A DNA stretch of 64,000 nt from Bacteroidales bacterium (GTDB lineage Bacteria > Bacteroidota > Bacteroidia > Bacteroidales > UBA3663). Shown in pieces: positions 32,271 through 48,250 of this stretch. The notes under the pieces are model-generated. The model saw only the letters and a program-made list of their open reading frames with translations. It was not told where the DNA came from and did not search any database. Each line of letters opens with the position of its first letter. The first letter of the stretch is position 1. Made by a program: the position numbers and the translations under genes. Location: assembly GCA_045600445.1 (NCBI GenBank), contig JAZRXZ010000021.1, forward strand, positions 42,577 to 106,576, given 5' to 3'.

Positions 32271-32345
32271 ATAAAAACTAATAAATAGTCAATACTATTT
32301 TACAAATATTAACACAAATATCAAACGTTCTCTCAAAGAATTTGC

Positions 32346-32916: not shown

Positions 32917-34087
32917 ATACAAATGCAGGTTTATTACCACCTTCAAGAATCCATTGATACAAATCTATCATCATCTGAGCCACCTTATGCTGCTCGTATT
33001 TCTCTTCCATGAGCTTACGCCCCTTCTGCCCCATTTCCTGTAACTCCACTTCTGTCTTTGACAGGATCTCAATAATTACATCTGCAATGATCTCAGGATC
33101 ATTCGACTTCCACCAGCCACAACCATACTCATTCAGTTCTTCCCAAGGTGTACCCAAACTTGCATAGACTGGAGTTCCACAAATCAATGCCTCTGGGACA
33201 ATCATACCAAAGTTTTCCTGGGCTGATGGCACCATCAAAGCAGACAAACGAGCTAGACGGTCATATTTTTCTTTACCATCCACATACCCTACGAACTCAA
33301 CAAACTCTTCAAGATCAAGTCGTTTGACTTCATCCTTCAACCATTGCTCATACTGATCGTCAAATTTCCCCATAATCTGAAGAGATACCTTAGCTCGCAA
33401 ATCCACTGGCAATTTATCCAATGCATATATCAAGTTTTCAACCTTTTTGATGGGATGTAAACGACCTAAAAAACCTATGTATCTCTTTCCGTCTACGAAC
33501 CTAAAACTATCCGAAGTTCGGCGATAATCCTGAATGTATTCTGGGAAAACCACAGGATTTGGAATCACTGCAATCGGACCTTTATATCCATAAGCTCTAC
33601 AATATTCCATCTCCTGTACGCAAGTAGCATGCAGACAAGAGGCTTCCATCACGTCTTTCCTATACCACATCGCTCCCATCAACTTCTTTTTCCATGCACT
33701 GACTGCCAATGCAGTCGGATATAACATCCCATGAGGCGACAGGACATATTTCTTTCCTCTTTTTACTGCATTTCTGCAAGTCGCATGAGTTGGATAAAGC
33801 CATAATGTATTCGCATGGTAAAGGTCATACTCTTTCTGCATCAAATACCCATCAATGTTCTTTGACAAAGCTAATGGAGTCTTATAATCACACTCCACAA
33901 CTTTCATCCAGGGACGATCAATACCTAAAACCTTCTGTGCATCCTCTCTAGGATATGAGGACAACAGAACAACGTCAGTTTTTCCATTTTGGCTAACGTC
34001 GTATAACCCATCCATGAGTGCATTAGTACATGTAGATGGGCCACCGTGAGCCGCTAACATATAGGGAATTGTCTGTAGGATTTTCAT
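32909..34087 (-). CDS. GT4-family (GT-B) glycosyltransferase
   Basis: 392-aa ORF with the C-terminal motif PSAQENFGMIVPEALICGTPVYAS. Confidence 0.75.
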   Translation of the reverse strand: MKILQTIPYMLAAHGGPSTCTNALMDGLYDVSQNGKTDVVLLSSYPREDAQKVLGIDRPWMKVVECDYKTPLALSKNIDGYLMQKEYDLYHANTLWLYPTHATCRNAVKRGKKYVLSPHGMLYPTALAVSAWKKKLMGAMWYRKDVMEASCLHATCVQEMEYCRAYGYKGPIAVIPNPVVFPEYIQDYRRTSDSFRFVDGKRYIGFLGRLHPIKKVENLIYALDKLPVDLRAKVSLQIMGKFDDQYEQWLKDEVKRLDLEEFVEFVGYVDGKEKYDRLARLSALMVPSAQENFGMIVPEALICGTPVYASLGTPWEELNEYGCGWWKSNDPEIIADVIIEILSKTEVELQEMGQKGRKLMEEKYEQHKVAQMMIDLYQWILEGGNKPAFVYE

Positions 34088-34090
34088 AGT

Positions 34091-35281
34091 TTAAGCTTTG
34101 CTACAAGGGCCTTCCAGAATTGTGGTCTCCGAACTATTCTTCAAACAATCAATCAGAGTCAAAAAATTCTCAGCTGCGACTTGAGGTGACCACAATTCAT
34201 TCATACATTTATGAGCATTTCTCTGCATTTCCAGTCTTTCGCTTGGATGAGTAAGTAGCCACTCGACTTTCTCCGTTAATGAGTCTACATCACAGCTACG
34301 GAACAAGAATCCATTATATCCATTTTTAATTAAATATGGAGAACTTCCGATAGCATCACTTGCCACCAAAACACAGCCATTAGCCATACTTTCATTAGCC
34401 ACAGCACCCCATCCTTCGTTTTTATCAGAAGAGAAAACAAAAACAGAACTTTGCTGCATCGCCTTAATGATTTCATCATTTGGCCTGTTTCCCATTAAAT
34501 GAACATAATCCTTAACGCCCAACTCATCTATTAATCTCTTAAGCTTTTCTTTTGGGAATATAGCATCATTCTTCGCAGCGTTGCCCTCATCTCCGTACAT
34601 CTCTAGGCGGAACTTATATCCTTTTTCTTTCAATCTGCTAGCCATTGCAACAGCTAGTTCTGGATGCTTCCACACAAGGAATCTGCCGCACCACATAATC
34701 CGGACGATAGGATTACTATCATTTGCAGACATTTCTTGAAGTCTCTTCTTTTCATCATATAAGTTGTCGACTTTCGTAAAATATCCCCATTTGTACCATC
34801 TGTCCATATAAGCATGTAAGACTATGTCGTCAACTTTAGTATATGCACTAGCACATAATCTGTAGAACCCGGCTTTTCTATAATACTTATGATAATAGTA
34901 CAGCCACTTTAGTAATCTTGGAGACAGTAGATTCAACAATCCTCTTTTTAACCAGCGCTCAGCAATCTCGAAAGACAATTGTGAGGGCTTTTGTCTAGCC
35001 TGTTTTGCTCTTTCTCCAGCGAATATCATAGCGTCTGCGCCAAAGACACAAACTTCTGCTTCTCTGGCTAAACGAATCGCGTTTTCAAAAGAAGCACCAC
35101 CCTCATAGGCCCTAATACAATACTTCCTAGAAACACTATAATCAGCACCACCCTTTAATAAAGCTATGCTAGCAGGTTTTGTCGCTACAAAAGCATAGTT
35201 CTCTCCCAATAAATCATATAGAGCATCAGCAACCAGCACCTGATGATGATTTAGGTAATTACAAAAGAAAACAAGTTTCAT
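34091..35281 (-). CDS. GT4-family (GT-B) glycosyltransferase
   Basis: 396-aa ORF with SSDKNEGWGAVANESMANGCVLVASDAIGSSPYLIKNGYNGFLF. Confidence 0.75.
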   Translation of the reverse strand: MKLVFFCNYLNHHQVLVADALYDLLGENYAFVATKPASIALLKGGADYSVSRKYCIRAYEGGASFENAIRLAREAEVCVFGADAMIFAGERAKQARQKPSQLSFEIAERWLKRGLLNLLSPRLLKWLYYYHKYYRKAGFYRLCASAYTKVDDIVLHAYMDRWYKWGYFTKVDNLYDEKKRLQEMSANDSNPIVRIMWCGRFLVWKHPELAVAMASRLKEKGYKFRLEMYGDEGNAAKNDAIFPKEKLKRLIDELGVKDYVHLMGNRPNDEIIKAMQQSSVFVFSSDKNEGWGAVANESMANGCVLVASDAIGSSPYLIKNGYNGFLFRSCDVDSLTEKVEWLLTHPSERLEMQRNAHKCMNELWSPQVAAENFLTLIDCLKNSSETTILEGPCSKA

Positions 35282-35300
35282 ATAAAAAAACTAATTATTT

Positions 35301-36581
35301 TCATGCTACAGACTTCTCACTTTTATCTGAAGCATCTTCTTCGTCATCATCAAAATACTCTTCACTTGCATCACTTGCACAACCGAATACCAGCCATACA
35401 ATAAAACATAAAGAACTTCCTCCCGCAAAGATATAACCTTCTGCAATAAATGCCATACAGAAAAAGACAAATAAACCAAATAAAAGGGTATTATATGGTG
35501 TGGGATTATCTTTTAGATAAATAAAAGGAGAAAATAAAATACCAAGAATTAAAACAAGACCTATTACTCCAGTCATAGATAGAATACAAAGCCACGAACT
35601 GCCAGGTTCTATAGTTCCTGTAATCTTATTGTAAGTATCATTTCCATTGGGATCTTGCGCAGAAAAGCCGACACCGAAGACAGGGCTGCTCGCAAATTCT
35701 GCCATTCGTGCTTCCCATTTTCCAGATCTGGAACCATAGTTTCCTTCAATCTTATTGTTTGCTTCCTGCTTATTTATAATACCTTCCGCAGCACTTTCCC
35801 ATAACGGAAAAGTAAGCATTGCAACCACAACCATTGAGAACAATGTTTTAATAAACGATCCGTTTTCTTTTTGGCTTTGGTATAACATTGCTAGAAAACC
35901 AGCCATGGTAGACATCAAAGCAGACCTAGAAGCAGAAAACAGCATAGTCGCTGCTAATGCAGCCATGATTACCCAATAGACAATACGAACTTCTTTATCT
36001 TGTCTTAAAGATCGATAAAACATGTATAGTATCGAAACACCAGAAAACAAACCAAGGGCGATTGATTGAATTGTCAATCCACCGAAACTTCCTCCTGACC
36101 CCTGAAAATTATCTAGAGCACTTCCATCTGCCTGATTCTTCATATAGTTAACACCAAGAAAATAGCAAAAAAACGACCCTAATGCAACAATGCTAGTAAT
36201 AAAAAGAACCCCTGTCAGAATTCCTCGTCTCATTGTAGCAAGATATTCGCCTTTAAACAATGGAGATGCTAATGCAAATACAAGAGCAAAAAAAGCCATT
36301 CGGGTCCAAGACTGAAATACAGGATCAGGATCAGCTACAATAATATTAATAGGCAAATAAAATAAAAAAGTAGCGCATGCTTTTTCAAACGTCCAATGCC
36401 TTCCTAAATTCAAGCAAAGACATAATAGGATAAAAGGGACATGGAAATAAGGGATTTTGGGGAACGGTCCAATTTGAGAAGACAACACAGCAATGGCTGT
36501 AGCCAAAGGAAGCCACTTAGACTCTTTATAAGCAAAAAGTACTTCTTGCTTAAGTGTCAATAAAATAGTTTCAGCATCCAT
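35301..36581 (-). CDS. wzy: O-antigen/capsule repeat-unit polymerase (Wzy / O-antigen ligase family)
   Basis: 426-aa ORF with about 10 TM segments. It has an FSASRSALMSTMAGFL (Wzy_C-like) segment and a periplasmic loop. The C-terminal tail is acidic. Confidence 0.7.
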   Translation of the reverse strand: MDAETILLTLKQEVLFAYKESKWLPLATAIAVLSSQIGPFPKIPYFHVPFILLCLCLNLGRHWTFEKACATFLFYLPINIIVADPDPVFQSWTRMAFFALVFALASPLFKGEYLATMRRGILTGVLFITSIVALGSFFCYFLGVNYMKNQADGSALDNFQGSGGSFGGLTIQSIALGLFSGVSILYMFYRSLRQDKEVRIVYWVIMAALAATMLFSASRSALMSTMAGFLAMLYQSQKENGSFIKTLFSMVVVAMLTFPLWESAAEGIINKQEANNKIEGNYGSRSGKWEARMAEFASSPVFGVGFSAQDPNGNDTYNKITGTIEPGSSWLCILSMTGVIGLVLILGILFSPFIYLKDNPTPYNTLLFGLFVFFCMAFIAEGYIFAGGSSLCFIVWLVFGCASDASEEYFDDDEEDASDKSEKSVA

Positions 36582-36621
36582 TGGGAATCAATAAATAAAA
36601 AAACGACAACAAAACCAGAAT

Positions 36622-37611
36622 TTACGACTTCTCACCTACTAAAAACTGTAATTGCATTTTCCCGAAGCAATACGCGACAAAAATACTAGCTAAAATGGAT
36701 ATCGAAAAAACTAGTGGAATCAATAGGAAATATGACAGTTTATCCCCAAGCAATGAACATATGATATAAATAAACACCACATGAAATAGATATATAGGAT
36801 AACTATTACTTAAGAAATATGGCAGAACATATATTCTCTTCAGTTTTGAAAATGCCCATTTCCCAATTGGCAATATGAAAGCAATCATTGCAGATGACAA
36901 AAGTTTAAGTAAGCCAACGTCCAAAACTTGAACAGGATTAATCAGCATTAATCCACCACTAACGACAAGAGTCAATACTGCATATACAACCATTTTCTTT
37001 CCTACGAAACCATCGTTCTTGGCTATCCACATTCCAAAAATGAAATATGACATATAATGAACAGCATGAGTCAATCGGAAAAAATCAAAACCTGGCAATA
37101 TGGCAAACCAAGCCATTGATAAAAGAATTGACAATAAGTAACTAACATAAATGTTTATTTTGAGATGAGTTAGCCACCAAACCACAATAAAAACCCAGAA
37201 CAATGCGGGAAGGGACCAAAGATGACGATCCATAGCATCTATACAGCAAACAGTTTTAATTATAGTCTGGACATAATTGCAATGACTTAATCCTAAAAAA
37301 TAAAGTGTTGGTGCTAAGAATATGATTGATACCACTATGAATGGTAATAATAATCTTAAAATCTTGTTTTTCAAAAAGGAAATAAAATCTCTATACTTTC
37401 CTCTTTCAATACAGAGTTCAAATATCGCCCCACTTAATGCAATATAGAGAGGCTTGTGAAAAAGATACAATCCTTTATTTATGGTTAATAAAAATTGATT
37501 CTCTGGTAATCCAAAACTTCTTCCATTATATAGAACAAGTTTATGCCCAAGGACGACTAATAGAATGTTTATTGATTTTACTAGATCCAGATAATTCTTC
37601 ATATATTTCAT
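36622..37611 (-). CDS. Membrane acyltransferase (acyltransferase-3 family, O-acetylation)
   Basis: 329-aa polytopic ORF. The N-terminus SINILLVVLGH and the overall topology are typical of Acyl_transf_3. Confidence 0.7.
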   Translation of the reverse strand: MKYMKNYLDLVKSINILLVVLGHKLVLYNGRSFGLPENQFLLTINKGLYLFHKPLYIALSGAIFELCIERGKYRDFISFLKNKILRLLLPFIVVSIIFLAPTLYFLGLSHCNYVQTIIKTVCCIDAMDRHLWSLPALFWVFIVVWWLTHLKINIYVSYLLSILLSMAWFAILPGFDFFRLTHAVHYMSYFIFGMWIAKNDGFVGKKMVVYAVLTLVVSGGLMLINPVQVLDVGLLKLLSSAMIAFILPIGKWAFSKLKRIYVLPYFLSNSYPIYLFHVVFIYIICSLLGDKLSYFLLIPLVFSISILASIFVAYCFGKMQLQFLVGEKS

Positions 37612-38780
37612 TTACGCAACAGTCTATTTCTCGCGACAGAAACTACTTTTCCTAATATTGCAGATAGTTTTAGAGATAACGTCAACTCTCTATCGAAGGA
37701 AGGTATAATCTCTTTGTAGAAGCTATTATGTTTGAATGTTGCTTCAATATACATGTCTTTGATATAATCTGCTCTATGAGAATGATAGTAATTGACATCA
37801 AACACTTCGCAGTAATTGTCAACAACACCTAGCGCATCTAGTGTAAGAAGTGTCCTCGCACACTTGAAACAAGTACTATCATTATGAGCTTCATTAACAC
37901 AAACATTCAGATACTTATTCGCCAACTTATAATTTGCAACCACACGAGTTTTTTCAAATCTGTTCAAATTACCACCTGTTGAGTAGAATTTCATTCCATT
38001 GATTGATGCCATTTGCAAAATTAGCAAATCATAATGTTCAGAATCAAGTTCCGCATTGTGTCCTTCTCTTATGATGGTAAATTCGGCATAAGAATAACCA
38101 GATGAATAATAGTAGTTCTTTATGGCTCCCTGAATATTATAGATGCAGAATAATGCCATATATGTATTATTCTCTACATGCGAATAACCCAAATACTTAT
38201 CAATCAACAAATGAATATTTGACTCGACAAACAAGAATGCCTTACCAGCTTCTAAAGTAAAGTTTTTTGCATTTTCGAGTCTACCTTCCAATAAAGGAGA
38301 TCGTAGAGTTTTCTCTTTTCGCCTAAAAGAACTCCCTGAATTAAAGAACGCTAACGTATTTAGCTTCTGATCGTCCGGCGCATTCTCATGTTGCGCAATA
38401 GTATACAAAGAATCGATTCCGCAAGATACACCTGTAGAAACAATATGATGAGTACCAATAATACCCTTACATAAAGGAGCTTCTACATGAACTCGTGTTA
38501 ATGTATTATTTACTTGCGACAGACCATCAATAAAATGAAATTCTAGATTATAGTATAATTCATCTGTTATTGGAATTTCTGAATAGATATCATATCCTTT
38601 GCACATACAGAAGAATAAAAGCCCCCACACAAAAGCATCTATTCTATCTGTAACTGTGTATTGTCTATATTCCTCTCCAATAAAAACATCAATAACCTCT
38701 CTATTTCCTTCAATCAGAAGGGTTGCAGACAAACCGTCTGCAGTTTTATCGATATTAAGAATTTCAAGCTTCGATTTCAT
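37608..38780 (-). CDS. Uncharacterised cytoplasmic protein with PP-loop-like S-C-G-x-D-S motif (paralog A)
   Basis: 390-aa ORF. It is clearly paralogous to 43391-44548, sharing blocks DAFVWGLLFF, IPITDELYYN, STGVSCGIDSLYT, GYSHVENNTYMA, YYYSSGY, YSTGG, KYLNVCV and CFKCARTLL. It overlaps both neighbours (4 nt and 17 nt). Confidence 0.6.
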   Translation of the reverse strand: MKSKLEILNIDKTADGLSATLLIEGNREVIDVFIGEEYRQYTVTDRIDAFVWGLLFFCMCKGYDIYSEIPITDELYYNLEFHFIDGLSQVNNTLTRVHVEAPLCKGIIGTHHIVSTGVSCGIDSLYTIAQHENAPDDQKLNTLAFFNSGSSFRRKEKTLRSPLLEGRLENAKNFTLEAGKAFLFVESNIHLLIDKYLGYSHVENNTYMALFCIYNIQGAIKNYYYSSGYSYAEFTIIREGHNAELDSEHYDLLILQMASINGMKFYSTGGNLNRFEKTRVVANYKLANKYLNVCVNEAHNDSTCFKCARTLLTLDALGVVDNYCEVFDVNYYHSHRADYIKDMYIEATFKHNSFYKEIIPSFDRELTLSLKLSAILGKVVSVARNRLLRK

Positions 38781-39663
38781 GATTGCTCTTTAATTTCAAC
38801 GGACATACTTCTACTAATGCTTCTAGATCCAAATGATTCAATGGCATTTGTCTACATGCAGATACTAAAACATCTCTTGATACACACGTCGAGATGATCA
38901 AAGCATCACGGTCTTCTCGAAGGGAGAGAAAAAAATCGTGAAACTTAAAATCATCTGTCAGTTTACTTCCTTCTAACTTAATCCAGACATTAGGAATACC
39001 ATAAGCGACACTCATGATCAAACCATGCATAGAAGATGATGCAATGACCTCACACATACAAATCTGGTCAATAAAATCCAGCCAATGAGAATAATGCTTA
39101 ATATCAATCATCAGAACGTTTTTATCATTTTTTAGGTTATTCAAAAAAGGGTTATTCTGATCTGCATAATGTGCAATAACACCTAATTTGAATTTTTTTT
39201 CAACCTTCGGACAATAAAAACGAGAAATCAGCAACGCAGGATCTCCATAAATCTCTGGGCAACTAATTCCCTGTTCAAGCAATAGTTTTCTAGTCAATGG
39301 ACCTCTAACAGCTCTAACTTCTTTAGGTTTTCCTTTTACAATGCCAGAACTTGAGATAATACCGGATCCCCAAACAATGGCATTCTCCATATCAAATAAA
39401 GTTAATATTGATCCTATTCCTGCAATATATGGACGATGAAGGAATTTTGTCATCAAAGACCAATCATACGAAATAATCTTCTTTTGAGAGATTTCACTCA
39501 AGAACCAATAATTAATGTCATCTCCCCAATTGTTTTTTATAAAACTTCCGTCTCTATTAAAATAAGCCGACATTTTTACAACTTGTGTTGGTGTAAAAAG
39601 CTCTAAAATAATATTGAAAAGAAGGCGTGTTATTTTTTTTATTCTTTCAATTAATAAACTCAT
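38764..39663 (-). CDS. Polysaccharide pyruvyl transferase family protein
   Basis: 299-aa ORF. NNWGDDINYWF near the N-terminus is the NxGD motif of PS_pyruv_trans. An alternative start is Met31 (39573). Confidence 0.65.
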   Translation of the reverse strand: MSLLIERIKKITRLLFNIILELFTPTQVVKMSAYFNRDGSFIKNNWGDDINYWFLSEISQKKIISYDWSLMTKFLHRPYIAGIGSILTLFDMENAIVWGSGIISSSGIVKGKPKEVRAVRGPLTRKLLLEQGISCPEIYGDPALLISRFYCPKVEKKFKLGVIAHYADQNNPFLNNLKNDKNVLMIDIKHYSHWLDFIDQICMCEVIASSSMHGLIMSVAYGIPNVWIKLEGSKLTDDFKFHDFFLSLREDRDALIISTCVSRDVLVSACRQMPLNHLDLEALVEVCPLKLKSNHEIEA

Positions 39664-39686
39664 TGGGGAAAAGCAAGCTATTATGA

Positions 39687-40601
39687 TTATTGATTGAAAT
39701 ATACATCTTTTAAGCCATTTTCTCGCAAGTACTTTCGTAGTTCTTGCAATTGTGATTGGTTTTTTCCCTGCCCATTATTCTCGGTAAAAAGACTTGGTGA
39801 ATCATTCTTAATTGGCAGACTGACAACATTTCTCTTAGTTTGTATGACAGGAGTGTTATTCAATCTTGCCATACAATTCAGCCAAATATCATCAGCCATA
39901 GGGATAAGTGCCATGAAAAGATCTTTTCTAGTCGCTAATTCATGCAGGCAATGAGGAGGATATAATACACCACCTATACCGACTTGCATCAAATCTTTCT
40001 TCTCGTAAGGATCACCTGTAGGTCCCCAATTATTATAATGAACAGCATTACCATCCGCAGAAAACTGAATTTTCCAAGTACGATTTGCCGTGATACAATT
40101 CGGGTTCTTTCTGCTGCATTCTACAAGTCGCTCTATCATTTCCGAATCGTAGATTACGTCATCATCACAAGTTATAAAGGACTTTTCTGAATATAATAAG
40201 AGCGAATAATGATGTTTTTTGTGAGAACGTATATCTCCATCGACCATCTGAATCTCAAATAGGTCATCAACTTGATTCCATAAAGACTGAGGGATGGAAC
40301 TCGCTGATGGGAACTGATCTTTTGATAGCCATAGAATTATCCTCTCCGGCAATACGGTCTGGTTCTTTAGGCTAACCACGACTTTCCATACGTCATTGAT
40401 TCGAGCAGGAAAAGACGTAAAGGATACTATTAATCCCTTTTCAGTCTTTCCCCATGGTACGAACTTGCAACTCTTGTATTTTAAGATATGAACCTCTGTA
40501 CATTTGCGTACAAGAACTCTTGCACACTTCATTACCAATGGCAGATACGGCTTATTCGCGAGACCAGTATATATGTAAGTCAGAGTAGATAAGATATTCA
40601 T
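39687..40601 (-). CDS. Putative GT-A-type glycosyltransferase (family unresolved)
   Basis: 304-aa ORF with IVSFTSFPARI, ERIILWLSKDQF and a DxD-like FITCDDDVIY. Confidence 0.45.
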   Translation of the reverse strand: MNILSTLTYIYTGLANKPYLPLVMKCARVLVRKCTEVHILKYKSCKFVPWGKTEKGLIVSFTSFPARINDVWKVVVSLKNQTVLPERIILWLSKDQFPSASSIPQSLWNQVDDLFEIQMVDGDIRSHKKHHYSLLLYSEKSFITCDDDVIYDSEMIERLVECSRKNPNCITANRTWKIQFSADGNAVHYNNWGPTGDPYEKKDLMQVGIGGVLYPPHCLHELATRKDLFMALIPMADDIWLNCMARLNNTPVIQTKRNVVSLPIKNDSPSLFTENNGQGKNQSQLQELRKYLRENGLKDVYFNQ

Positions 40602-40604
40602 AAA

Positions 40605-41783
40605 TTATAATTCTTTCAAAAGGTGATCCATCAAATTGTCAAACTCCCGAAGTACAAAAGATTTTGTAAATGGATATTTTCCTGCATTGGACTCTAGTTT
40701 CTGTCGCAAATCATTATTAGTTAAGACGTCTACTATTGCATCAGCCATAATCGAAGGATTGTATTCTCGAAGAAGTCCATTCTCCCCATCTTGTATTTGT
40801 TCTTTGAATGCAGGAATGTTTGATGCAACTACAGCCTTTCCTAAACACAATGCCTCAGAAACCATCATTCCCCAAGATTCATAAGTACTTGGCTGAACTA
40901 CGACATCTGCAGACTTAACCAATGGCATTGGATTTGGCAGACTCCCTGCAAAAATAACTCGATTAGGGGAACACTTTTCATTTGCCTCTTGCTGTAATCT
41001 TTGTCTGCCTCCGCCATCACCGATAATTATCCATTCAAAGTCAATTCCTTTTTGTTCTATTTTTTTAGCTATATCTGGAATAATATCAAAACCCTTGGCT
41101 GAAGTAATTCTACCAACGGAAGCAATACGCATTATTGAGTCTTTCTTAGGATATTCACAGATTTCTTTTGCTCGCTCTTTACAAATATCCGCATCAATAA
41201 TATTGTGAACGACGTAATGTGGAGCCGATTTGAGGCCAATAGTGCAGACCAAGTCCTTGCCTACATATTCTGAAACAGGAACACATGCATCAACATGATC
41301 AAATGCCTGTAATACATAAGGCAATTGAGGCCAATGACTATATGGAATATGAATCCAACTGCATTTCTTTCCTTTCTTTACTTTCTTTACAATCATTGGC
41401 ACAGTGAAACCATCTTCATAACTGCATACTACATCATAGTCCTCTTTTATTACAGATAAAAAAGGCCATAAATAATAGTTTAGCTTGAAAGCTCTTTGGA
41501 AAGAAACAAGCAGACGATATAAGACTAAATCAAATCTACCACGTTCAAAAGCTTTTCTTAATGCAACTCTTAATGGCAACCTATGAACAGAATAGCAGAG
41601 TCGTTCTGGTAGTACGGTAACGTGTCCTGGTATTCTATCCATCATGCTTCCGCCATGTGACAAAACAAACAAACTGACATTATATTTATCTCTTGGCAGA
41701 GAATTCAAAAGAGCTAAAAGGCTCATTGTTGCCCCATTAACGGTAAGTTCTTCGGCAACAAAGAGAATTCTTTTTGGGGTCAT
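40605..41783 (-). CDS. GT4-family (GT-B) glycosyltransferase
   Basis: Start chosen at MTPKRILFVAEEL (41783), avoiding the extension toward wzx. The C-terminal motif is PSTYESWGMMVSEALCLGKAVVASN. Confidence 0.75.
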   Translation of the reverse strand: MTPKRILFVAEELTVNGATMSLLALLNSLPRDKYNVSLFVLSHGGSMMDRIPGHVTVLPERLCYSVHRLPLRVALRKAFERGRFDLVLYRLLVSFQRAFKLNYYLWPFLSVIKEDYDVVCSYEDGFTVPMIVKKVKKGKKCSWIHIPYSHWPQLPYVLQAFDHVDACVPVSEYVGKDLVCTIGLKSAPHYVVHNIIDADICKERAKEICEYPKKDSIMRIASVGRITSAKGFDIIPDIAKKIEQKGIDFEWIIIGDGGGRQRLQQEANEKCSPNRVIFAGSLPNPMPLVKSADVVVQPSTYESWGMMVSEALCLGKAVVASNIPAFKEQIQDGENGLLREYNPSIMADAIVDVLTNNDLRQKLESNAGKYPFTKSFVLREFDNLMDHLLKEL

Positions 41784-41828
41784 AAATATAGATATTGAAT
41801 TGCAGCAAATATTGAGCAATGATAAATG

Positions 41829-43355
41829 CTACTTCTTTATAAAAGAAACAACTTTTCTTTGGAGATACAAACGTTCTTGATTTGATAAACCTACTAAAAG
41901 AATAACGAAGACAGATAAAAAGACAGAGAGTATAATTGAACTCAGAGAACCCATAACCGACGATGGAAGAAAAATAGAAATATAATACGACAAAACACCC
42001 GCAATCAAACCAACTAGTGCACAAGGTAGAATGGACTGAATAAGGAATTGATTAATAGATAAGTTAATCATTGGTCTCAATATAACAAAGCGACCGATAT
42101 AAGCGGTACAGGCAATAAAAAGATGAACATAAAACACACTATCTGGATCACCTCCCAAATATAGAGAGATATATGCACATGGGACAATTAATAGCAATAA
42201 CCCACCAATCACAGACTGGCAGAGTTTAACGTTACCAGTTGCCGAAATGGAGACATTCAACGGATTCGACAATGCGTCAAAAATACATATCAATAACATT
42301 AATCTTAAAAAAACTACCGCATACTCAGGCACCAGACCTAGCCACATACTTAACACAAATTCTGTCTTAAGCAAAAGTGGTAGGACGAGACAAAATAGAA
42401 GAAAAAACGTAATTTTTGTACTTCTATATATTAAGGAATACATATTAGAAAGATCATCATTTGCGAATGATTTAGTAATTTGAGGGTTGATTGCTGTCTG
42501 AAAGTTAACAGCAAACATTTGCACAGAAGATTGCACTTGAACTGCAATTGCTCTAGCAGCGTTGACTGCCGGTCCGAAAAACATGTTCAATAGCACATTG
42601 ACTCCATGTGTATATAATACGCCTGCTAAATTACCCCAAAGACTCCATCCGGCAAATGATAGTACCTCTCGGAAAAGAGCTTTATCCCACACCTTTTTGA
42701 AATGGCTTTCATCAAAGTGTTTATGACAATAATGCGTGTATATATACCTAACGACAAGCTGGACAACAAGTAGTAATATGGCATAAAGTATGAGATTGTC
42801 TGCTATACCTAGCATCAACACATATATAACAGCAAGTTTTGCTATTACCTCGAATATTGAAATATAAGCAAAAGCAGACATCTTTTCATGAGCTATAATA
42901 CAAGCATTATAAGGGACACTCCATATCATAACTAATGAGGAAGCAATTGAACACTGATATATCCACATTGCAGCTGATACTCGCGAATCAGGAATTGTCA
43001 GCTTATTCATCACAAACCACAGACCTATTGTTTCTGCAAATATAAATATGATGAGCGCAATAACAAGATGAGTTATTAGACAAGTAGAAAATACCTTTTT
43101 AAGTTGATCTTTATCACCTTTCCCTAATGTAAATGTGATATATCGAGAAGTGCTTGAACTGATAGCGCCATTCAAGAACCCAAGAAACGAGACAAAACCA
43201 CCAACGACATTATAAATACCAAAATCATCCACACCAAGTGTCTGCAAGATAATACGTGAAGTATATAAAGAAATAACCATCAAGAACATCATGCGAAAAT
43301 ATAGCATGATAGTATTCTTAGCTATTCTTCCGTTATTAACTACAGACTGCGACAT
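41829..43355 (-). CDS. wzx: Wzx-type oligosaccharide flippase (MOP superfamily), copy 1
   Basis: 508-aa ORF with about 12-14 TM segments. The N-terminus KNTIMLYFRMMFLMVISLYTSRIILQTLGVDDFGIYNVVGG is typical of polysaccharide biosynthesis (PST) proteins. Confidence 0.8.
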   Translation of the reverse strand: MSQSVVNNGRIAKNTIMLYFRMMFLMVISLYTSRIILQTLGVDDFGIYNVVGGFVSFLGFLNGAISSSTSRYITFTLGKGDKDQLKKVFSTCLITHLVIALIIFIFAETIGLWFVMNKLTIPDSRVSAAMWIYQCSIASSLVMIWSVPYNACIIAHEKMSAFAYISIFEVIAKLAVIYVLMLGIADNLILYAILLLVVQLVVRYIYTHYCHKHFDESHFKKVWDKALFREVLSFAGWSLWGNLAGVLYTHGVNVLLNMFFGPAVNAARAIAVQVQSSVQMFAVNFQTAINPQITKSFANDDLSNMYSLIYRSTKITFFLLFCLVLPLLLKTEFVLSMWLGLVPEYAVVFLRLMLLICIFDALSNPLNVSISATGNVKLCQSVIGGLLLLIVPCAYISLYLGGDPDSVFYVHLFIACTAYIGRFVILRPMINLSINQFLIQSILPCALVGLIAGVLSYYISIFLPSSVMGSLSSIILSVFLSVFVILLVGLSNQERLYLQRKVVSFIKK

Positions 43356-43390
43356 ATGAATACGTTATTACAATTCGTTAGTATTTTCTT

Positions 43391-44548
43391 CTACCTTCTA
43401 AATAATTGAATAACAGCCTCAAGAATGGCATAACTCTTAAAAAAGAGAGTTAGTTTATTTTTGTACAAAGGCAAAATTTCTTTACTAAAGTCATCATGAA
43501 AGAAAGATGCAGATACCCATGACTTTCTAATGTATTTGTTTTTATTCTTTCGGAATTTTTCTACATTAAAAACATCTTTGAAATCATCCAAATGGCCAAC
43601 TGCATCTATACTTAACATGGTACGGATACACTTAAAGCAATCACCTTCATTGAACGACTCTCGAACACAAACATTCAAATATTTCTGAGCTGGTTGGTAT
43701 GTAGAAATTGCTCTTGTTTTATCAATACGCTTGATAGATCCACCAGTAGAATATACTTTCAACTGTCCTATGGATATTGTGAAGAATGTCAGGAGGTCGT
43801 ACTTTGCAGAATCGAGTTCCTCCGTTTTATGTGCCTTTAATAATTTAAAATCAGAATATGGATAACCTGCGGAATAATAATATCTGCTTATACCTTTCTG
43901 CAATAAAAGAATACAGAAAGCAGCCATATAAGAGTGGTTTGTCACATGAGAATAACCGCCATATCTATCTATCAATTGATAAATATCAGAAGTGACAGAA
44001 TAGAAAGTATATCCATATTCCTCTGCAAACTTCTTGCAATGATTATATCTGCCTTCATATAACGCCTTGTCCTTTTCTTCATCCATTCCCGTATGATGAG
44101 ACCCTATGTTATAGAAAGCCAGATGGGTAATCTTATGGGTAGGAATTTCTATGTTATCATGCACTTTTAAAGTATATAGAGCATCAACGCCACAACTTCC
44201 ACCTGTCGCAACAATTGAATCAATATGTTCGCAACATGGGATTATAGGAATATAGAGATGTGTGCGGTACAAGCCACTATTTGGAGAGGCAAGAGCATCA
44301 ATAAAATGATTTTGAATGTTATAATAAAGATCCTCAGAAATAGGGATGTCTGACTTGATATCAAAACCATGAGACATTGCAAAAAACAGCAAGCCAAAAA
44401 CAAATGCGTCGCAACGATCATCTGTTATGAATGAAAGCATATTATCAGAAACTGTAGCCGTAATTGTTTCCTCTATGCCATTAATAAAGACTGTTGCAAT
44501 GATGATATTATCATTACGACAAATACGTTTTATATGAAGAATAGCCAT
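43391..44548 (-). CDS. Uncharacterised cytoplasmic protein with PP-loop-like S-C-G-x-D-A motif (paralog B)
   Basis: 385-aa ORF, paralog of 37608-38780. Shared blocks are DAFVFGLLFF, IPISEDLYYN, ATGGSCGVDALYT, GYSHVTNHSYMA, YYYSAGY, YSTGG, KYLNVCV and CFKCIRTML. Confidence 0.6.
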   Translation of the reverse strand: MAILHIKRICRNDNIIIATVFINGIEETITATVSDNMLSFITDDRCDAFVFGLLFFAMSHGFDIKSDIPISEDLYYNIQNHFIDALASPNSGLYRTHLYIPIIPCCEHIDSIVATGGSCGVDALYTLKVHDNIEIPTHKITHLAFYNIGSHHTGMDEEKDKALYEGRYNHCKKFAEEYGYTFYSVTSDIYQLIDRYGGYSHVTNHSYMAAFCILLLQKGISRYYYSAGYPYSDFKLLKAHKTEELDSAKYDLLTFFTISIGQLKVYSTGGSIKRIDKTRAISTYQPAQKYLNVCVRESFNEGDCFKCIRTMLSIDAVGHLDDFKDVFNVEKFRKNKNKYIRKSWVSASFFHDDFSKEILPLYKNKLTLFFKSYAILEAVIQLFRR

Positions 44549-44551
44549 ATT

Positions 44552-45496
44552 CTAACTATCTTTGTGCAAACTATTATAGACCGCAGGGATTAATGTTCGA
44601 TAGTATAAACTTAATGCATCTCTAAACTTGCAATAGCGAAATAGTCCTTTATAAGTATAAATCAGTATTTCCTGTAATTGTCTTAAATACCCGAGTTTCT
44701 TCAACCAAGTAATATAGAACATCCAAAAACGGAACTTAAAACTTTTTCTCAATTCAGTCAATGAAATTCCAAGTTTCTTTTCTGTTTTACTTACTTGCTT
44801 GAGTATCTTCTTTATATGAAACTCGTATTCATCTGTACTAACACAATATTTAAGATTTGCCTCTGAAGGAGAATAACGTTGATGGTAGTGTGCTTGTGGA
44901 ATAGTTACCAAAGATTGAACATACGTGATATATTCCAAACAAAAATGTATGTCTTCTGCATTTTTCATCCCTAAAGGGAATCTAATATTGTTAGACAGAA
45001 TAACTTCTTTCTTGAATAACTTACACCATGGAGCTAAAAAAAGTGTTTTTTTTAGTAATTCTGCCCAATATGTCCGAATCTCAGTAACATTTGATCGATC
45101 TATATTTTCTGTACAAACTTCAGTTTTATTTATTTCACCAAATCTAATAAAGTTCTCAATGTATAAATCATCTCCTTTAGGGGCAAATTCTTCCAAATAA
45201 TTACTATCGACATAATCATCTGCATCAATAAATGTGATATAATCACCTTTGGCTAGCTCAATACCAATATTTCTGGCACTACTCACACCTCCGTTTTCCT
45301 GATGAATAACCTTAATTCGGTTGTCTTTCTCTGCATATTCATCACAAATTCGACCACTTCCATCAGGAGATCCATCATCTACCAGTATAAGTTCCCAATT
45401 AGGATAAGTTTGAACAAGAATACTATCGAGACATTCTCGCAGATACTGCTCAACTCGATAAACTGGAACAATAATTGTAATTAACGCGGCTGCCAT
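44552..45496 (-). CDS. Family 2 glycosyltransferase
   Basis: 314-aa ORF with IIVPVYRVEQYL, ELILVDDGSPDGS and DYITFIDADDY. Confidence 0.85.
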   Translation of the reverse strand: MAAALITIIVPVYRVEQYLRECLDSILVQTYPNWELILVDDGSPDGSGRICDEYAEKDNRIKVIHQENGGVSSARNIGIELAKGDYITFIDADDYVDSNYLEEFAPKGDDLYIENFIRFGEINKTEVCTENIDRSNVTEIRTYWAELLKKTLFLAPWCKLFKKEVILSNNIRFPLGMKNAEDIHFCLEYITYVQSLVTIPQAHYHQRYSPSEANLKYCVSTDEYEFHIKKILKQVSKTEKKLGISLTELRKSFKFRFWMFYITWLKKLGYLRQLQEILIYTYKGLFRYCKFRDALSLYYRTLIPAVYNSLHKDS

Positions 45497-45522
45497 TTTA
45501 CTATTATCGTAACCAAAAATAC

Positions 45523-46035
45523 TTATGCTTCTACAAATTCCTTAATAATTCTTGCAGGGACACCTCCGACCCTAGTATATGGTGGCACATCATGTGTAAC
45601 AAGACTTTTTGCTGCTGCATGACTCATTTCGCCAAGAGTCTTACCAGGTAAAAGTGTTGCACCTAAACCAAGTGAAGCTCCTCTACAGATTCTACAAGTA
45701 CTTGAACTTCCTTCATAACCTATGATTCTAGGACCTTCAGGTGTTATTGGATGAAATCCAGTCACAATTGTTGCATCATGGCCTACCATTCCATAGTTCT
45801 CAATAATGACAGAGCTGCCAGCATTAGTCATAATCTTAGCATCAATACCGATAAAGCAATTGTCGCCGATCTGAACCTCTCCTGCACCAAAGATTTGCGC
45901 ACCAGAAAAAATCTCAACATTATTTCCGATTTTAACACCAGCCCATCTATAAATACGAGACTTAAGACTCATACATCTGGATGTAGGTAATACTTTATTG
46001 ATCAAGTTTGCTATATATAATCTACTTGTATTCAT
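45523..46035 (-). CDS. Hexapeptide-repeat (LbH) acetyltransferase
   Basis: 170-aa ORF with repeated [LIV]-G-x4 hexapeptides (VKIGNNVEIFSGAQIFGAGEVQIGDNCFIG) and a GGVPARIIKEF end. Confidence 0.8.
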   Translation of the reverse strand: MNTSRLYIANLINKVLPTSRCMSLKSRIYRWAGVKIGNNVEIFSGAQIFGAGEVQIGDNCFIGIDAKIMTNAGSSVIIENYGMVGHDATIVTGFHPITPEGPRIIGYEGSSSTCRICRGASLGLGATLLPGKTLGEMSHAAAKSLVTHDVPPYTRVGGVPARIIKEFVEA

Positions 46036-46045: not shown

Positions 46046-46858
46046 TTATATCCAATAAGCGGTAATACCATGAGGAGACTGACGATCTTTCTCTTCAGGC
46101 AATTTCATATAGTCATTATAATGCTGAGTAAGATAAGCCTCATAGTCTTTTATACACATATATTCCTTATTTTCAAAAGAAAGATAAGTATACTCTAGAA
46201 AGATATGATTGTCCATTAATTCTTTCTCATTATAAGCACCTACAACAGCACCACCATATATAGAATCCTCGATACTACATGAAGCCAATGTCTTCATCAA
46301 TAAATTATGAAGCTTCTTATGGGTATACTTCCATAAACAATAATATCCATTTTCAATGAGATTTGACTCCCATAAAATCCTACGCCATACCAACTGTTTG
46401 ATTGTTGCAATTTTTCGCTTGCGTATGATTCTTGTATTATATAATTTGAGTATAGATCTCAGCTTCCACATAGCATCAACCGTTTCCTTATCAGGGAAAA
46501 AGTCAATTGGGAAAATATCTATATAAACACTTTCTTCATTATCGTTTCCCAATGTACTTGTTCTCAAATCATACAGTTTTGCAAATAACCAGAAATGTTC
46601 CTTATCGTGAAGATAATAAGATAGCTTCGTATTAGTCTCTGCCCCATCAAAGTTCTTCAAAAAGTACTCATAATCCGGCCTCGGCATCATCACGTCAATA
46701 TCATCATCCCAAGGTATGAATCCCTGATGGCGGACAGCGCCGAGGAGAGTTCCTCCTCCGAGAGAATAACGTAGATTATGCTCTTCGCAGAAATCTGCAA
46801 AGATATTGAGCATGCGGAGTTGAATCTCTCTTTGCTCTTCTGGTGAGACTTTTCTCAT
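46046..46858 (-). CDS. licD: LicD-family phosphotransferase (CDP-alcohol/phosphocholine-type transfer to glycan)
   Basis: 270-aa ORF with the LicD signature LRYSLGGGTLLGAVRHQGFIPWDDDIDVMMPR. Confidence 0.8.
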   Translation of the reverse strand: MRKVSPEEQREIQLRMLNIFADFCEEHNLRYSLGGGTLLGAVRHQGFIPWDDDIDVMMPRPDYEYFLKNFDGAETNTKLSYYLHDKEHFWLFAKLYDLRTSTLGNDNEESVYIDIFPIDFFPDKETVDAMWKLRSILKLYNTRIIRKRKIATIKQLVWRRILWESNLIENGYYCLWKYTHKKLHNLLMKTLASCSIEDSIYGGAVVGAYNEKELMDNHIFLEYTYLSFENKEYMCIKDYEAYLTQHYNDYMKLPEEKDRQSPHGITAYWI

Positions 46859-47153: not shown

Positions 47154-47576
47154 TTAATGCTGCTTCTCCGCATATTCCCTCAACTTCATCAAAAGTCCTA
47201 CGATGATGGAGATGATGAGGACGCCAGAGGTGTTGTAGATGAGGTCATCGACCTCGAAAGTGCCGGTACAAGTATAGTATTGAAGGACTTCTATCGAGAG
47301 AGAACAAAGGAAGCCGATCAGGGTGACGAGCAGGAAATGCCAACGGAGACAGGTGAGCAGGAAGCCGAGAGGCATGAGAAGGATAATATTCAGAATGACT
47401 TCTCTCAGGATATACTGGCCATGAGAGATATAGGGATACTGCTGGATGTCCTTGATGGTCTGGAATGGCACTAAGCAGATGCGTGGTTCTGACAATGGCT
47501 CACGACCGAAGACGGTATAATAATAGACGATGGCAAGGAAAAGAACCGTCAAAATCAGGATAAATTTCTTGAACAT
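47154..47576 (-). CDS. VanZ-like membrane protein
   Basis: 140-aa ORF with 4 TM segments. NIILLMPLGFLL and SIEVLQYY..GTFEVDDLIYNTSG are typical VanZ motifs. Confidence 0.7.
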   Translation of the reverse strand: MFKKFILILTVLFLAIVYYYTVFGREPLSEPRICLVPFQTIKDIQQYPYISHGQYILREVILNIILLMPLGFLLTCLRWHFLLVTLIGFLCSLSIEVLQYYTCTGTFEVDDLIYNTSGVLIISIIVGLLMKLREYAEKQH

Positions 47577-47581: not shown

Positions 47582-48052
47582 CTATCGCATTTTCTGATTA
47601 GCACCACGTTTTTTGCGAAGCTCCTGACGCAAGAGGTTGTAGTACTCTGGTCCTGCTTTACTTTTCGTGCCCCCCACTGTAGTACCGAGTTTTCGCTGGA
47701 AGAAGCGCCAGAGTGAATCATCGCTGGCATATCCACAGGCATGAGCGACTTCAGTAAGGGTTGCATCTGGATGCTCCTGAGTGTACTGCTGCACCTGATT
47801 GATGCGATACTGCTGAATCACGTCAATCAGTTTCATTCCCAGATCGAGCTGGATGGCACACGCTAATCTGCGTGCGTCGACATCGAGATATTCTGCGATT
47901 TCCTTACTCTCGATCAGGTGCGTCTGAAAGAGTGCATGTGCCAACGCGTTAACGATCGGTGAGGCTGTGTAGGTTTCAGCATTACCTGGATTGTAGTCAA
48001 TAACCTGCTGAAAAGTAGCAACTGGAAGGTAAGGATGTTTTTCTTTTATCAT
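47582..48052 (-). CDS. AraC-type helix-turn-helix protein (DNA-binding domain only)
   Basis: 156-aa ORF. The HTH_18-like region is SKEIAEYLDVDARRLACAIQ...TLTEVAHACGYASDDSLWRFFQRKLG. It has no sensor or receiver domain. Confidence 0.7.
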   Translation of the reverse strand: MIKEKHPYLPVATFQQVIDYNPGNAETYTASPIVNALAHALFQTHLIESKEIAEYLDVDARRLACAIQLDLGMKLIDVIQQYRINQVQQYTQEHPDATLTEVAHACGYASDDSLWRFFQRKLGTTVGGTKSKAGPEYYNLLRQELRKKRGANQKMR

Positions 48053-48250
48053 AATCCTGACATTAGGTTTGTGATGTTAGTATTCTGTATTTGTGAAGCT
48101 GACATTACGTACGTGTTGTCAGCTTTCTGTATTCGTGAAGCTGACATTACGAACGTGTTGTCAGCTTTCTGCATCTGTGAAGCTGACATTACGTACGCGT
48201 TGTCAGCTTTTTGCATCCGCGAAGCTGACATTACGTTCGTGATGTCAGCA
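48053..48250. repeat. Tandem repeat array B: four 42-bp units, each with palindrome GCTGACA-N12-TGTCAGC, plus one degenerate unit
   Basis: Units start at 48095, 48137, 48179 and 48221. The 7-bp arms are identical in all four units while loops and linkers vary. Loops contain ACGTACGT, ACGAACGT or ACGTTCGT. The degenerate copy is at 48053-48094. The SDR stop codon (48231-48233) lies inside the last hairpin loop. The array abuts the AraC start codon at 48052. Confidence 0.9.

Follow-up and report, generated by a model that had tools for sequence, protein, structure and literature searches.

The window, i.e. the whole stretch of 64,000 nucleotides analysed here, holds a Bacteroidales-type capsule gene cluster with two related genes, referred to as copy A (37608..38780, minus strand, 390 aa) and copy B (43391..44548, minus strand, 385 aa). 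The two proteins are 43% identical across 381 aa with one gap (BLASTP, E = 2e-110), so that their paralogy is far above chance, and the ORF list and the BLASTP alignment agree in making them full-length paralogs, as an earlier note based on the DNA letters had proposed. Both look soluble, as the same note had described, since neither sequence has a hydrophobic stretch of TM grade (maximum KD19 1.31 and 1.48 for A and B, respectively). The tight packing with transferase genes also held up. Copy A shares 4 nt at its stop with the start of an Acyl_transf_3 gene (36622..37611, minus strand), and 17 nt at its start with the end of a PS_pyruv_trans gene (38764..39663, minus strand). Copy B lies between a GT2 gene (44552-45496), beginning 3 nt after it, and a Wzx-type flippase gene (MatE/MOP; 41829..43355, minus strand) located 35 nt downstream of B. 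No separate pyruvyl transferase accompanies copy B, and no glutaminase partner is found in the window cassette.

Copies A and B are members of a family of ATP-using PP-loop enzymes that is very large and unnamed. The earlier note could not place them in any polysaccharide-biosynthesis family known to it, and we found no Pfam, NCBIfam or PDB-sequence matches for either one and no characterised family to which they belong. The family comprises 7,851 clusters at 50% identity across many phyla and is without a Pfam, NCBIfam or literature description. At the sequence level it matches PP-loop enzymes only, and the alignments fall exactly on the loop: the matches of its profile against PDB are confined to the PP-loops of GMP synthase and MnmA, and the sole recurrent NCBIfam matches of 125 diverse members are NadE and MnmA. 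When the family is aligned with the E. coli QueC by hhalign, the P-loop and beta2 motifs fall in register, the similarity being limited to ~55 residues (E ~0.007, hhalign probability 5%). Membership in the WbpG/WbuX family was considered and rejected, as none of the 125 members matches TIGR03573.

The predicted structure of A (AF2, pLDDT 96.4 and pTM 0.93) has five parallel strands alternating with helices after the loop, and Foldseek searches with it retrieve almost exclusively PP-loop enzymes, in support of the PP-loop (adenine-nucleotide alpha-hydrolase) fold suspected in the earlier note. The top ranks in PDB are TilS, GMP synthase, NcsA, TtuA and NadE, with the best E = 6.9e-3 at probability 0.96 and no PDB structural match at E <= 1e-3. 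In BFVD the top five matches are all QueC (E = 1.6e-4 to 1.4e-3, probability 1.0), the three single-domain ones at ranks 1-3 having a target TM of 0.56-0.64. The query-normalised TM is only 0.3-0.4 because ~45% of the protein has no template. Both proteins are very probably PP-loop enzymes, and the modelled fold most resembles QueC.

The PP-loop of A (38400..38435, minus strand; residues 116-127) reads T-G-V-S-C-G-I-D-S-L-Y-T, follows strand beta1 (residues 113-117) and aligns to G-L-S-G-G-V-D-S of GMP synthase and F-S-G-G-Q-D-S of QueC. Its counterpart in B (44171..44206, minus strand; residues 115-126) is T-G-G-S-C-G-V-D-A-L-Y-T. The loop Cys highlighted in the earlier note is thus conserved between A and B but not family-wide, where this position is occupied by C in 80, G in 28, A in 10, R in 3, S in 2 and L in 2 of the 125 members, and the canonical SGGxDS is kept in 28 of them (22%). 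Judging from this alignment, the Cys-substituted loop is a lineage variant and no family hallmark. G121 and D123 are invariant, and Tyr126 is not conserved across the family. The beta2 motif of A, L-A-F-F-N-S-G-S (38331..38354, minus strand), aligns with F-D-Y-G-Q-R-H of QueC; the family consensus here is F-x-N-[VA]-G-[SA]-H, with G149 present in 123/125 members.

The C-F-K-C-x-R-T block pointed out in the earlier note is present in both copies but, on the alignment, is better read as part of a QueC-type four-ligand metal site, C-x6-[C/D/E]-x2-C-x2-C. The predicted metal-binding motif occupies residues 291-310 in both proteins. In A (37851..37910, minus strand) it is LNVCVNEAHNDSTCFKCART, i.e. 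L-N-V-C294-x6-D301-x2-C304-F-K306-C307-x-R-T, and in B (43619..43678, minus strand) it is LNVCVRESFNEGDCFKCIRT, i.e. L-N-V-C-x6-E-x2-C-F-K-C-x-R-T with Glu at the position of the fourth metal ligand. The family-wide form is C-x6-[C/D/E]-x2-C-x-K-C-x-R-T, in which C294, C304, K306 and C307 are invariant and the variable ligand, second in order at the D301 position, is C in 116, D in 7 and E in 2 of the 125 members. QueC binds Zn through C(x)8CxxCxxC (PMC13329287), and the metal at the predicted site is probably Zn as well. The combination of three invariant Cys and one variable ligand would be compatible with an Fe-S site, too.

The QueC-like PP-loop core and the Cys3-Asp metal motif of A are flanked by two further elements. 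For the N-terminal domain (38451..38780, minus strand; residues 1-110), a beta3-alpha-beta-alpha unit, no significant structural neighbour was found. Its D-R-x-D-A-F motif contains a near-invariant Asp48. At the other end is a basic amphipathic C-terminal helix (37611..37685, minus strand; LTLSLKLSAILGKVVSVARNRLLRK), which could possibly serve as a peripheral membrane anchor, the last 30 residues carrying a net charge of +5.

The family probably works as a dimer, as tandem fusions indicate. In nine proteins an intact copy is joined to one whose PP-loop is destroyed, and in one more both of the joined copies are intact. The dead copies have also lost the Cys motif and still keep the Asp48 motif; it is this pairing of dead and active copies that points to a dimeric working form. 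We take A and B for PP-loop ATP pyrophosphatases that are soluble, probably dimeric and would sit peripherally at the membrane; the ATP-PPase activity is likewise a prediction. The two copies might even be an obligate heterodimer performing one step, with one subunit mainly structural or substrate-presenting; this is a matter of quaternary structure and does not conflict with the chemistry favoured below. Besides the tandem fusions, such an arrangement would be in keeping with the rare substitutions S124A and N188D in B, each seen in 3/125 members, and with the divergent pairs in two other loci, L071, where they flank wzx, and L072. However, the invariant family residues are all retained in both A and B, 72 of the 79 loci have a single copy, and the B-type orthologs P0057 and P0068 are the only copies of their loci and sit inside triads of their own. 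We therefore regard an obligate heterodimer as rather unlikely.

The family is found mainly in glycan loci, with glycan markers in 73/79 genome loci, which extends to the family the glycan setting that the earlier note had given for the two copies. Its strongest positional partner is the Wzx gene, adjacent in 36 of the 40 loci possessing one versus 8.6 expected (p = 3e-20), and ABC exporters are adjacent in 6/12 loci. The gene order PS_pyruv_trans, family PP-loop gene, Acyl_transf_3, seen around copy A, is a translationally coupled triad frequent in Bacteroidales, and it occurs with 4-nt overlaps in the window and in loci L004, L089 and L091. Translational coupling of the family gene to capsule genes is observed in several genera. 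Some members are fused to PS_pyruv_trans (P0177 and P0235) or GT2 (P0150), others to a Mur ligase with VanY (P0121, P0229 and P0262) or Peptidase_S11 (P0109), and SH3 fusions exist in some lineages. The role of the family is probably in glycan or envelope tailoring.

Our best explanation, which we put forward tentatively, is that A and B tailor the capsule repeat unit in a late cytoplasmic step, tied genetically to the flippase. By analogy with QueC, NadE, Dph6, Cap9 and WbpG, the S-[C/G]-G-x-D-S loop would bind the beta- and gamma-phosphates of ATP, and the enzyme would adenylate an oxygen, most likely of a carboxylate although a carbonyl is also considered, on either the lipid-linked repeat unit or a nucleotide-sugar precursor. 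AMP would then be displaced by a nitrogen nucleophile, either ammonia or an amine (for example an amino acid), to give an amide, and the flippase would export the modified unit; A and B would perform two such steps or, as one heterodimer, a single one. Amides are formed from a carboxylate in the QueC family with ammonia by QueC itself or with a protein amine by Cap9 and QatC (PMC13329287), and the lack of a glutaminase partner in the cassette is in keeping with ammonia or an amine being used directly, as QueC does. The amide-forming chemistry, suggested by this analogy, is itself somewhat less likely than not. That the target is a pyruvate-ketal or lactyl carboxylate seems unlikely. PS_pyruv_trans adjacency is weakly enriched (17/50 versus 10.6 expected, p = 0.02), and a locus-level argument for pyruvate was dropped, as PS_pyruv_trans is equally frequent in 80 Wzx-anchored control loci without the family (68%, versus 63% of the family loci).

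Two other chemistries could act on a glycan. In a WbpG/PseA-type reaction the N-acetyl carbonyl oxygen of an amino sugar would be adenylated and replaced by ammonia, so that the product would be an amidine, namely an acetamidino sugar, and not an amide. The family members are likewise PP-loop enzymes of similar size (~380 aa) in glycan loci, where the cluster 5 amidotransferases have the sole established role for stand-alone PP-loop enzymes (PMC13329287), and S-x-G-x-D-S-x-Y of the window copies resembles the WbpG loop SGGxDSxY. However, the Tyr of this loop varies across the family, the NCBIfam N-acetyl-sugar amidotransferase model is unmatched by 125/125 members even at E <= 10, and the Cys motif stands before the P-loop in WbpG and after it here. 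The cassette also has no HisH/HisF-like (WbuY/WbuZ) partner, aminotransferase or amino-sugar pathway genes, and we consider this reaction improbable. Slightly less likely still is an Fe-S-dependent sulfur transferase like TtuA, NcsA, TtcA or the non-sacrificial LarE, in which a [4Fe-4S] cluster on the three invariant Cys would carry sulfide on its free iron and sulfur would replace the adenylated oxygen to yield a thio-sugar or thiocarboxylate. In its favour, the top PDB fold matches include NcsA and TtuA, exactly three Cys (C294, C304 and C307) are invariant with a varying fourth ligand, as in the three-Cys clusters of LarE and TtuA, and FrhB-like Fe-S flavoproteins are frequent neighbours. 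But the best structural match is QueC, whose Zn motif, not the central CxxC...C of TtuA, agrees with the family in Cys spacing and C-terminal position, and the inspected loci showed no gene for a sulfur carrier or a cysteine desulfurase. To our knowledge, thio-modified capsule sugars are essentially unknown.

The gene may instead serve a housekeeping or nucleobase function (7-deazapurine, tRNA or cofactor) or act on a cell-wall peptide, and merely hitch-hike in variable loci. This is suggested by QueC being the nearest fold, by a Bacillaceae subgroup with no obvious glycan locus, whose neighbours are genes for a trypsin-like protease and ApbA, and by the VanY, Peptidase_S11, Mur ligase and SH3 fusions, which for some lineages point to peptides of the peptidoglycan type. 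However, the substrate motifs of QueC are missing, and no queD, queE or tgt is found in the neighbourhoods. The extreme adjacency to Wzx or ABC exporters, the coupling to capsule genes and the PS_pyruv_trans and GT2 fusions also speak against it, as does the patchy distribution of the gene, often duplicated inside a low-GC variable cassette, unlike a housekeeping gene. We find a non-glycan role very improbable, and keep amide formation on the capsule repeat unit as the preferred reading.

Among known systems, the sole Pfam model touched by many members is DUF6395 (PF19932; 34/125), spanning the Cys motif and the following helices, roughly residues 262-345, with scores all of 14-17 bits, where the gathering threshold is 25 bits; this model, too, is uncharacterised, and our literature search found no mention of it. 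TilS, the GMP synthase ATP-PPase domain, NadE, MnmA and TtuA/NcsA share the Rossmann-like PP-loop fold with the S-G-G-x-D-S loop after beta1, but match at E of 7e-3 or worse with 12-16% identity and have no substrate-binding domain in common with the family. The nearest functional analogue is the WbpG/PseA/LfnA/WbuX group (TIGR03573; cluster 5 in PMC13329287), ~380-aa stand-alone PP-loop enzymes of O-antigen and capsule loci that exchange oxygen for nitrogen, although that group uses HisH/HisF-like partners, absent here, and has different neighbours.

QueC, 7-cyano-7-deazaguanine synthase (PF06508), is the best structural match (BFVD E = 1.6e-4, target TM ~0.6). Like the family members it is stand-alone and lacks a glutaminase domain, is dimeric, as the fusions indicate for the family, and has a four-ligand Cys motif after the Rossmann core in a shared C..C-x2-C-x2-C..R layout. 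Unlike QueC, the family adds a 110-aa N-terminal domain and a ~80-aa C-terminal helical tail (390 aa versus 231), spaces its first Cys by x6 instead of x8, may use Asp/Glu as the second ligand, and is set among glycan export genes and not with queD/queE/tgt; the PF06508 model detects 1/125 members, at E = 0.047. Nor does the family conserve YxQxHxxE, the substrate motif of QueC, a point against our best explanation. Cap9 (type IV CBASS) and QatC (QatABCD) differ from the family in being PF06508 proteins of defence operons with 7-carboxy-7-deazaguanine and protein N-termini as substrates, none of which is found here. In both, the QueC scaffold joins a carboxylate, once adenylated, to an amine that is not ammonia, so that the conjugation of an amino acid or amine has a precedent, and the VanY, S11 and Mur-ligase fusions hint in the same direction.

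The run of minus-strand genes from 28207 to ~52461 contains a Wzx/Wzy cassette, which extends from LicD (46046-46858) to Wza/Wzc (28207-31499). At 30000-46000 its GC content is 0.34-0.40, whereas the flanking regions (16-28 kb and 52-60 kb) have 0.45-0.51, a drop that would fit horizontal exchange of the capsule cassette. Two genes of the cassette, A (37608-38780, minus strand, 390 aa) and B (43391-44548, minus strand, 385 aa), had been described in an earlier note as soluble-looking, collinear paralogs of no known family, and our analysis bears this out. A one-gap alignment of the two spans 381 residues at 43% identity (E = 2e-110), the motifs named for them are found at the expected positions, neither has a transmembrane-grade hydrophobic segment, and neither has any match to Pfam, NCBIfam or PDB sequences. 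The packing among transferase genes holds as well: A overlaps an Acyl_transf_3 gene by 4 nt and a PS_pyruv_trans gene by 17 nt, and B has a GT2 gene on one side and wzx on the other.

Some other genes around the two paralogs are also worth recording. The ORF at 39687-40601 (minus strand, 304 aa) lies between the GT4 and pyruvyl-transferase genes and has no Pfam match; it contains C-D-D-D-V, a DxD-like motif, and may hence be an unclassified GT-A glycosyltransferase. Between the LicD-to-Wzc cassette and a Glf / epimerase / GT2 / GT8 block at 48231-52461 lie, on the minus strand, a small membrane ORF (47154-47576) and a gene of the AraC HTH type (47582-48052). Upstream lies a separate second glycan cluster of the teichoic-acid / ABC-transporter type (52467-63853, minus strand), encoding an IspD/TarI-like cytidylyltransferase, an ABC ATPase, an ABC-2 permease, a MatE protein, a Reg_prop beta-propeller protein, a WecG/TagA::GT1 fusion, a choline-kinase/APH-like protein and a 507-aa protein without a Pfam match that was picked up by our Wzx HMM.

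The family of A and B is large and has hardly been annotated. Its homologs form 130 clusters in a word-indexed search, all named 'hypothetical' and none with a Pfam domain, and an exhaustive profile search at E <= 1e-3 gave 7,851 representatives (50% identity), 1,715 of them reaching E <= 1e-30. A genome scan with a pattern covering the Cys-type loop only gave 271 confirmed matches across Bacteroidota, Bacilli, Clostridia, Verrucomicrobiota, Kiritimatiellia, Lentisphaerae, Alphaproteobacteria, Planctomycetota, Ignavibacteriota and Gastranaerophilales, and in one Methanomassiliicoccaceae archaeon. Single sequences of Bacteroides, P. vulgatus and B. xylanisolvens are found in 500-800 contigs each under the public name 'hypothetical'; the P. 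vulgatus ortholog has the accession WP_057280816. Single-sequence and profile searches against Pfam, NCBIfam and PDB sequences gave no significant family assignment. We found no Pfam or NCBIfam model, structure or literature description of the family, nor any paper that deals with DUF6395, links PP-loop enzymes to pyruvyl transferases or reports a QueC-like group from glycan loci.

The AF2 model of A (pLDDT 96.4, pTM 0.93) falls into three parts. Residues 1-110 form a beta3-alpha-beta-alpha domain at the N-terminus; a Rossmann-like core of five strands follows, its first strand leading directly into the S-C-G-I-D-S loop; and the C-terminal region, starting at a Cys motif, is helical. The earlier note had suspected a PP-loop enzyme, and Foldseek with this model retrieves PP-loop enzymes nearly exclusively, at modest scores. 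No match to the PDB reaches E <= 1e-3; the list is almost purely made of PP-loop enzymes, with TilS the best (E = 6.9e-3, probability 0.96) and GMP synthases, NcsA, TtuA and NadE among the others. Against BFVD, a set of predicted viral structures, QueC takes all top five places (E = 1.6e-4 to 1.4e-3, probability 1.0), with target-normalised TM scores of 0.56-0.64 for the three single-domain QueC matches at ranks 1-3. That QueC is not among the leading PDB matches may be due to the sole QueC structure there, which is reported to be truncated (PMC13329287). The model predicts a Rossmann-like alpha/beta/alpha fold that can be superposed, with modest scores, on PP-loop enzymes. A separate model of the N-terminal domain (pLDDT 95) finds no significant fold neighbour, its best match (E = 0.014) being of loosely RNase-H-like topology.

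Sequence comparisons give weak but consistent evidence for a PP-loop/QueC kinship. Profile matches against the PDB fall on the P-loops of GMP synthase and MnmA and nothing else, and NadE and MnmA are the only recurrent matches in an NCBIfam scan of 125 diverse members. The hhalign alignment with E. coli QueC puts the P-loop and the beta2 motif (F-x-N-V-G-S-H vs F-D-Y-G-Q-R-H) in register; this link has E of about 0.008, covers only these two elements and gains nothing from a profile over the single E. coli sequence, the QueC profile being shallow, with all retrieved homologs >80% identical.

The family carries the S-G-G-x-D-S/T loop of the PP-loop ATP pyrophosphatase superfamily: S119-x-G121-x-D123-S124 (numbering of A) comes right after the strand 113-117 and ahead of the helix 122-130. 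Seven residues, G121, D123, L291, C294, C304, K306 and C307, are invariant in the 125 members, and D48, T116, G117, S119, S124, G149, N188, Y223, R274, K277, N300, C301, R309, T310 and F327 are conserved in at least 90% of them. The Cys that replaces the first Gly of the loop in A and B had been taken as a conserved substitution; it is conserved between these two but not family-wide, position 120 being C in 80, G in 28, A in 10, R in 3, S in 2 and L in 2 of the members. Since the exact SGGxDS loop (S-G-G-[VI]-D-S) occurs in 28 of the 125 (22%), the alignment indicates that the loop Cys is a tolerated lineage variant, and that the backbone rather than the side chain matters at this position. 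A role of the loop Cys as catalytic residue or metal ligand was rejected, G, A, R, S or L being present in 36% of members. The sole conserved Cys motif is C-terminal (residues 294-307) and has four ligand positions, C294-x6-C301-x2-C304-x-K-C307-x-R-T, where position 301 is Asp in A and Glu in B. All nine members with Asp or Glu at 301 have the loop Cys (9/9), an association confounded by phylogeny.

We examined the gene neighbourhoods of the family in 79 species-level loci within ±7 kb, using iterated HMMs instead of BLAST single-linkage clusters, which join GT, FrhB and pyruvyl-transferase genes via fusion proteins; the pyruvyl-transferase set was confirmed against PF04230 of Pfam in 57/57 cases. 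Wzx is adjacent to the family gene in 36 loci and lies within three genes, as well as in the locus, in 40. The corresponding numbers (adjacent, within three genes, in the locus) are 17, 45 and 50 for PS_pyruv_trans, 13, 27 and 28 for the FrhB/FdhB-like Fe-S flavoprotein, 8, 16 and 20 for Acyl_transf_3, and 6, 9 and 12 for an ABC exporter. A glycan marker is absent from 6/79 loci, mostly short contigs. In a random-placement test the Wzx adjacency (36/40 vs 8.6 expected) has p = 3e-20, compared with 0.003 for FrhB, 0.02 for PS_pyruv_trans and 0.035 for the ABC exporter. A translationally coupled triad of PS_pyruv_trans, family gene and Acyl_transf_3 recurs in Bacteroidales, in the window and in L004 (P. 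vulgatus), L089 and L091, with both A-type and B-type orthologs. Family genes are also fused to PS_pyruv_trans (two), tandem GT2, a methyltransferase, Mur-ligase/LRR/VanY modules (three) and Peptidase_S11.

The co-occurrence with PS_pyruv_trans in 63% of the loci could be read as a sign of a pyruvate-carboxylate substrate. We dropped this reading after a control of 80 metagenome loci anchored on relatives of the window's Wzx (L093-L172), in which the family is absent (0), PS_pyruv_trans reaches 68% and FrhB-like genes 55%. Pyruvyl transferases thus go with this type of Wzx and locus, not with the PP-loop gene. In favour of a pyruvate link there remain the triad, a modest enrichment of adjacency and two fusions, together suggestive but not strong.

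Several other gene associations came out of these loci. The Wzx clade of the cassette travels with PS_pyruv_trans and the FrhB/FdhB-like Fe-S flavoprotein even without the PP-loop gene (L093-L172; L008-L087), and seven FrhB::PS_pyruv_trans fusion proteins were found among the family loci. This module of pyruvyl transferase plus FrhB-like reductase appears to be uncharacterised, and we speculate that it follows an enolpyruvyl-to-lactyl logic like that of MurA/MurB. TupA-type ATP-grasps lie near family genes in 6/79 loci, and a Lentisphaerae MAG (L050) has a repeated unit of two TupA-like ATP-grasps and a family gene beside an ABC exporter. A Bacillaceae subgroup (Neobacillus / Bacillus: L001, L032, L038, L049, L061 and L068) has a distinct conserved context of a 159-aa ORF (weak YceG-like match), a 448-aa protein without a Pfam match picked up only by the iterated Wzx HMM, the family gene and ApbA, with a divergently oriented Trypsin_2 protease gene. 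This subgroup may have a cell-wall rather than a capsule role.

The domain is present twice in nine proteins of 540-1,320 aa. Their N-terminal copy is truncated, with the P-loop destroyed (e.g. A-S-F-D-E-E-E-D-F) and no Cys motif, and keeps the Asp48 'xDAF' motif; their C-terminal copy is whole and carries both T-G-G-x-D-[SC] and the Cys4 motif. In one more protein the two copies are both intact. Such fusions point to an obligate dimer in which a single active site can suffice, and suggest that Asp48 of the N-domain acts in the dimer context.

To our knowledge every characterised PP-loop enzyme adenylates an oxygen, which is then exchanged for nitrogen or sulfur. QueC, the closest scaffold, converts a carboxylate to an amide with free ammonia; in its relatives Cap9 and QatC the nitrogen comes from a protein amine (PMC13329287). 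We found no glutaminase partner among the cassette genes. A and B end in a basic amphipathic helix (net charge of the last 30 residues +4 or +5, family median +6), which could hold them at the membrane, where the lipid-linked repeat unit is completed and flipped. Together, the precedent, the missing glutaminase and the helix make it our preferred reading that A and B would use ATP to form an amide on the repeat unit, in a late cytoplasmic tailoring step.

Other readings compete with this one. In a heterodimer A and B would carry out a single step; the inactive copies in the fusions would suit such a division, and two family copies occur in 7/79 other loci, some as recent tandem duplicates and others as divergent pairs, that of L071 flanking wzx as in the window. 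Thiolation dependent on an Fe-S cluster would agree with the fold matches of A to TtuA and NcsA, but the central CxxC and distal Cys that hold [4Fe-4S] in TtuA/NcsA/TtcA differ from the Cys layout of the family, and no sulfur-carrier genes were seen in the loci. Amidine formation as by WbpG is another rival; HisH/HisF-like partners (WbuY/WbuZ) are lacking among the 20 annotated cassette genes and in the 25 most frequent families of directly adjacent genes from ~62 loci. A role outside glycans is the last of these rivals.

Within the favoured reading of amide formation, a fuller proposal, to which we give a low probability, is that the family is an unrecognised class of glycan amidoligases: dimeric, Zn-dependent, QueC-like enzymes docked at the inner membrane beside Wzx, converting a carboxylate of the lipid-linked repeat unit (pyruvate ketal, lactyl ether or uronic acid) to a carboxamide or an amino-acid/D-Ala conjugate. 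If this is true, capsule charge would be switched in gut Bacteroidales and many other phyla, and the cognate flippase would co-evolve to recognise the modified unit. The charge and substituents of gut Bacteroidales capsules drive immune modulation, phage susceptibility and strain competition, and many tailoring genes in capsule loci are still annotated 'hypothetical'. A QueC-like PP-loop identity would offer testable biochemistry, ATP-dependent O-to-N replacement on a glycan, for thousands of such genes, with the fusions of dead and active copies and the near-obligatory adjacency to a flippase gene as experimental handles.

The family would resemble QueC or WbpG in its working, yet fails the membership tests of both. 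The QueC HMM (PF06508) matches 1/125 members (E = 0.047) and neither A nor B at E <= 10, and that of WbpG/WbuX (TIGR03573) matches 0/125 at E <= 10. DUF6395 (PF19932) gives weak matches in 34/125 members (best E-value 6e-4), covering only the Cys motif and the following helices and scoring 14-17 bits among six matches listed, below the gathering score of 25 bits. The C-terminus of E. coli QueC reads C-x8-C-x2-C-x2-C-x2-R and the family layout is alike with x6; the published Zn motif, C(x)8CxxCxxC (PMC13329287), shares order and position with C-x6-[C/D/E]-x2-C-x2-C of the family, where the metal is putative. The substrate-pocket motif YxQxHxxE of QueC is absent, the aligned segment being F-x-N-V-G-S-H-G, and in place of queD/queE/tgt the neighbours are flippases, pyruvyl transferases, FrhB-like proteins and acyltransferases. 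The Cys motif of WbpG/WbuX, CxxC(x)6CxC, is N-terminal to the P-loop, that of the family on the opposite, C-terminal side. We place the family outside both because of the missing HMM matches, the absent QueC motif and neighbourhood, the opposite side of the WbpG Cys motif and the lack of HisH/HisF-like partners. A 2026 survey of the QueC superfamily describes no glycan- or pyruvyl-associated group of this kind (PMC13329287). What is new is a PP-loop family of very large size and distinct architecture rather than a principle, and with it the functional radiation of the QueC scaffold, mapped only recently, would reach into polysaccharide biosynthesis.
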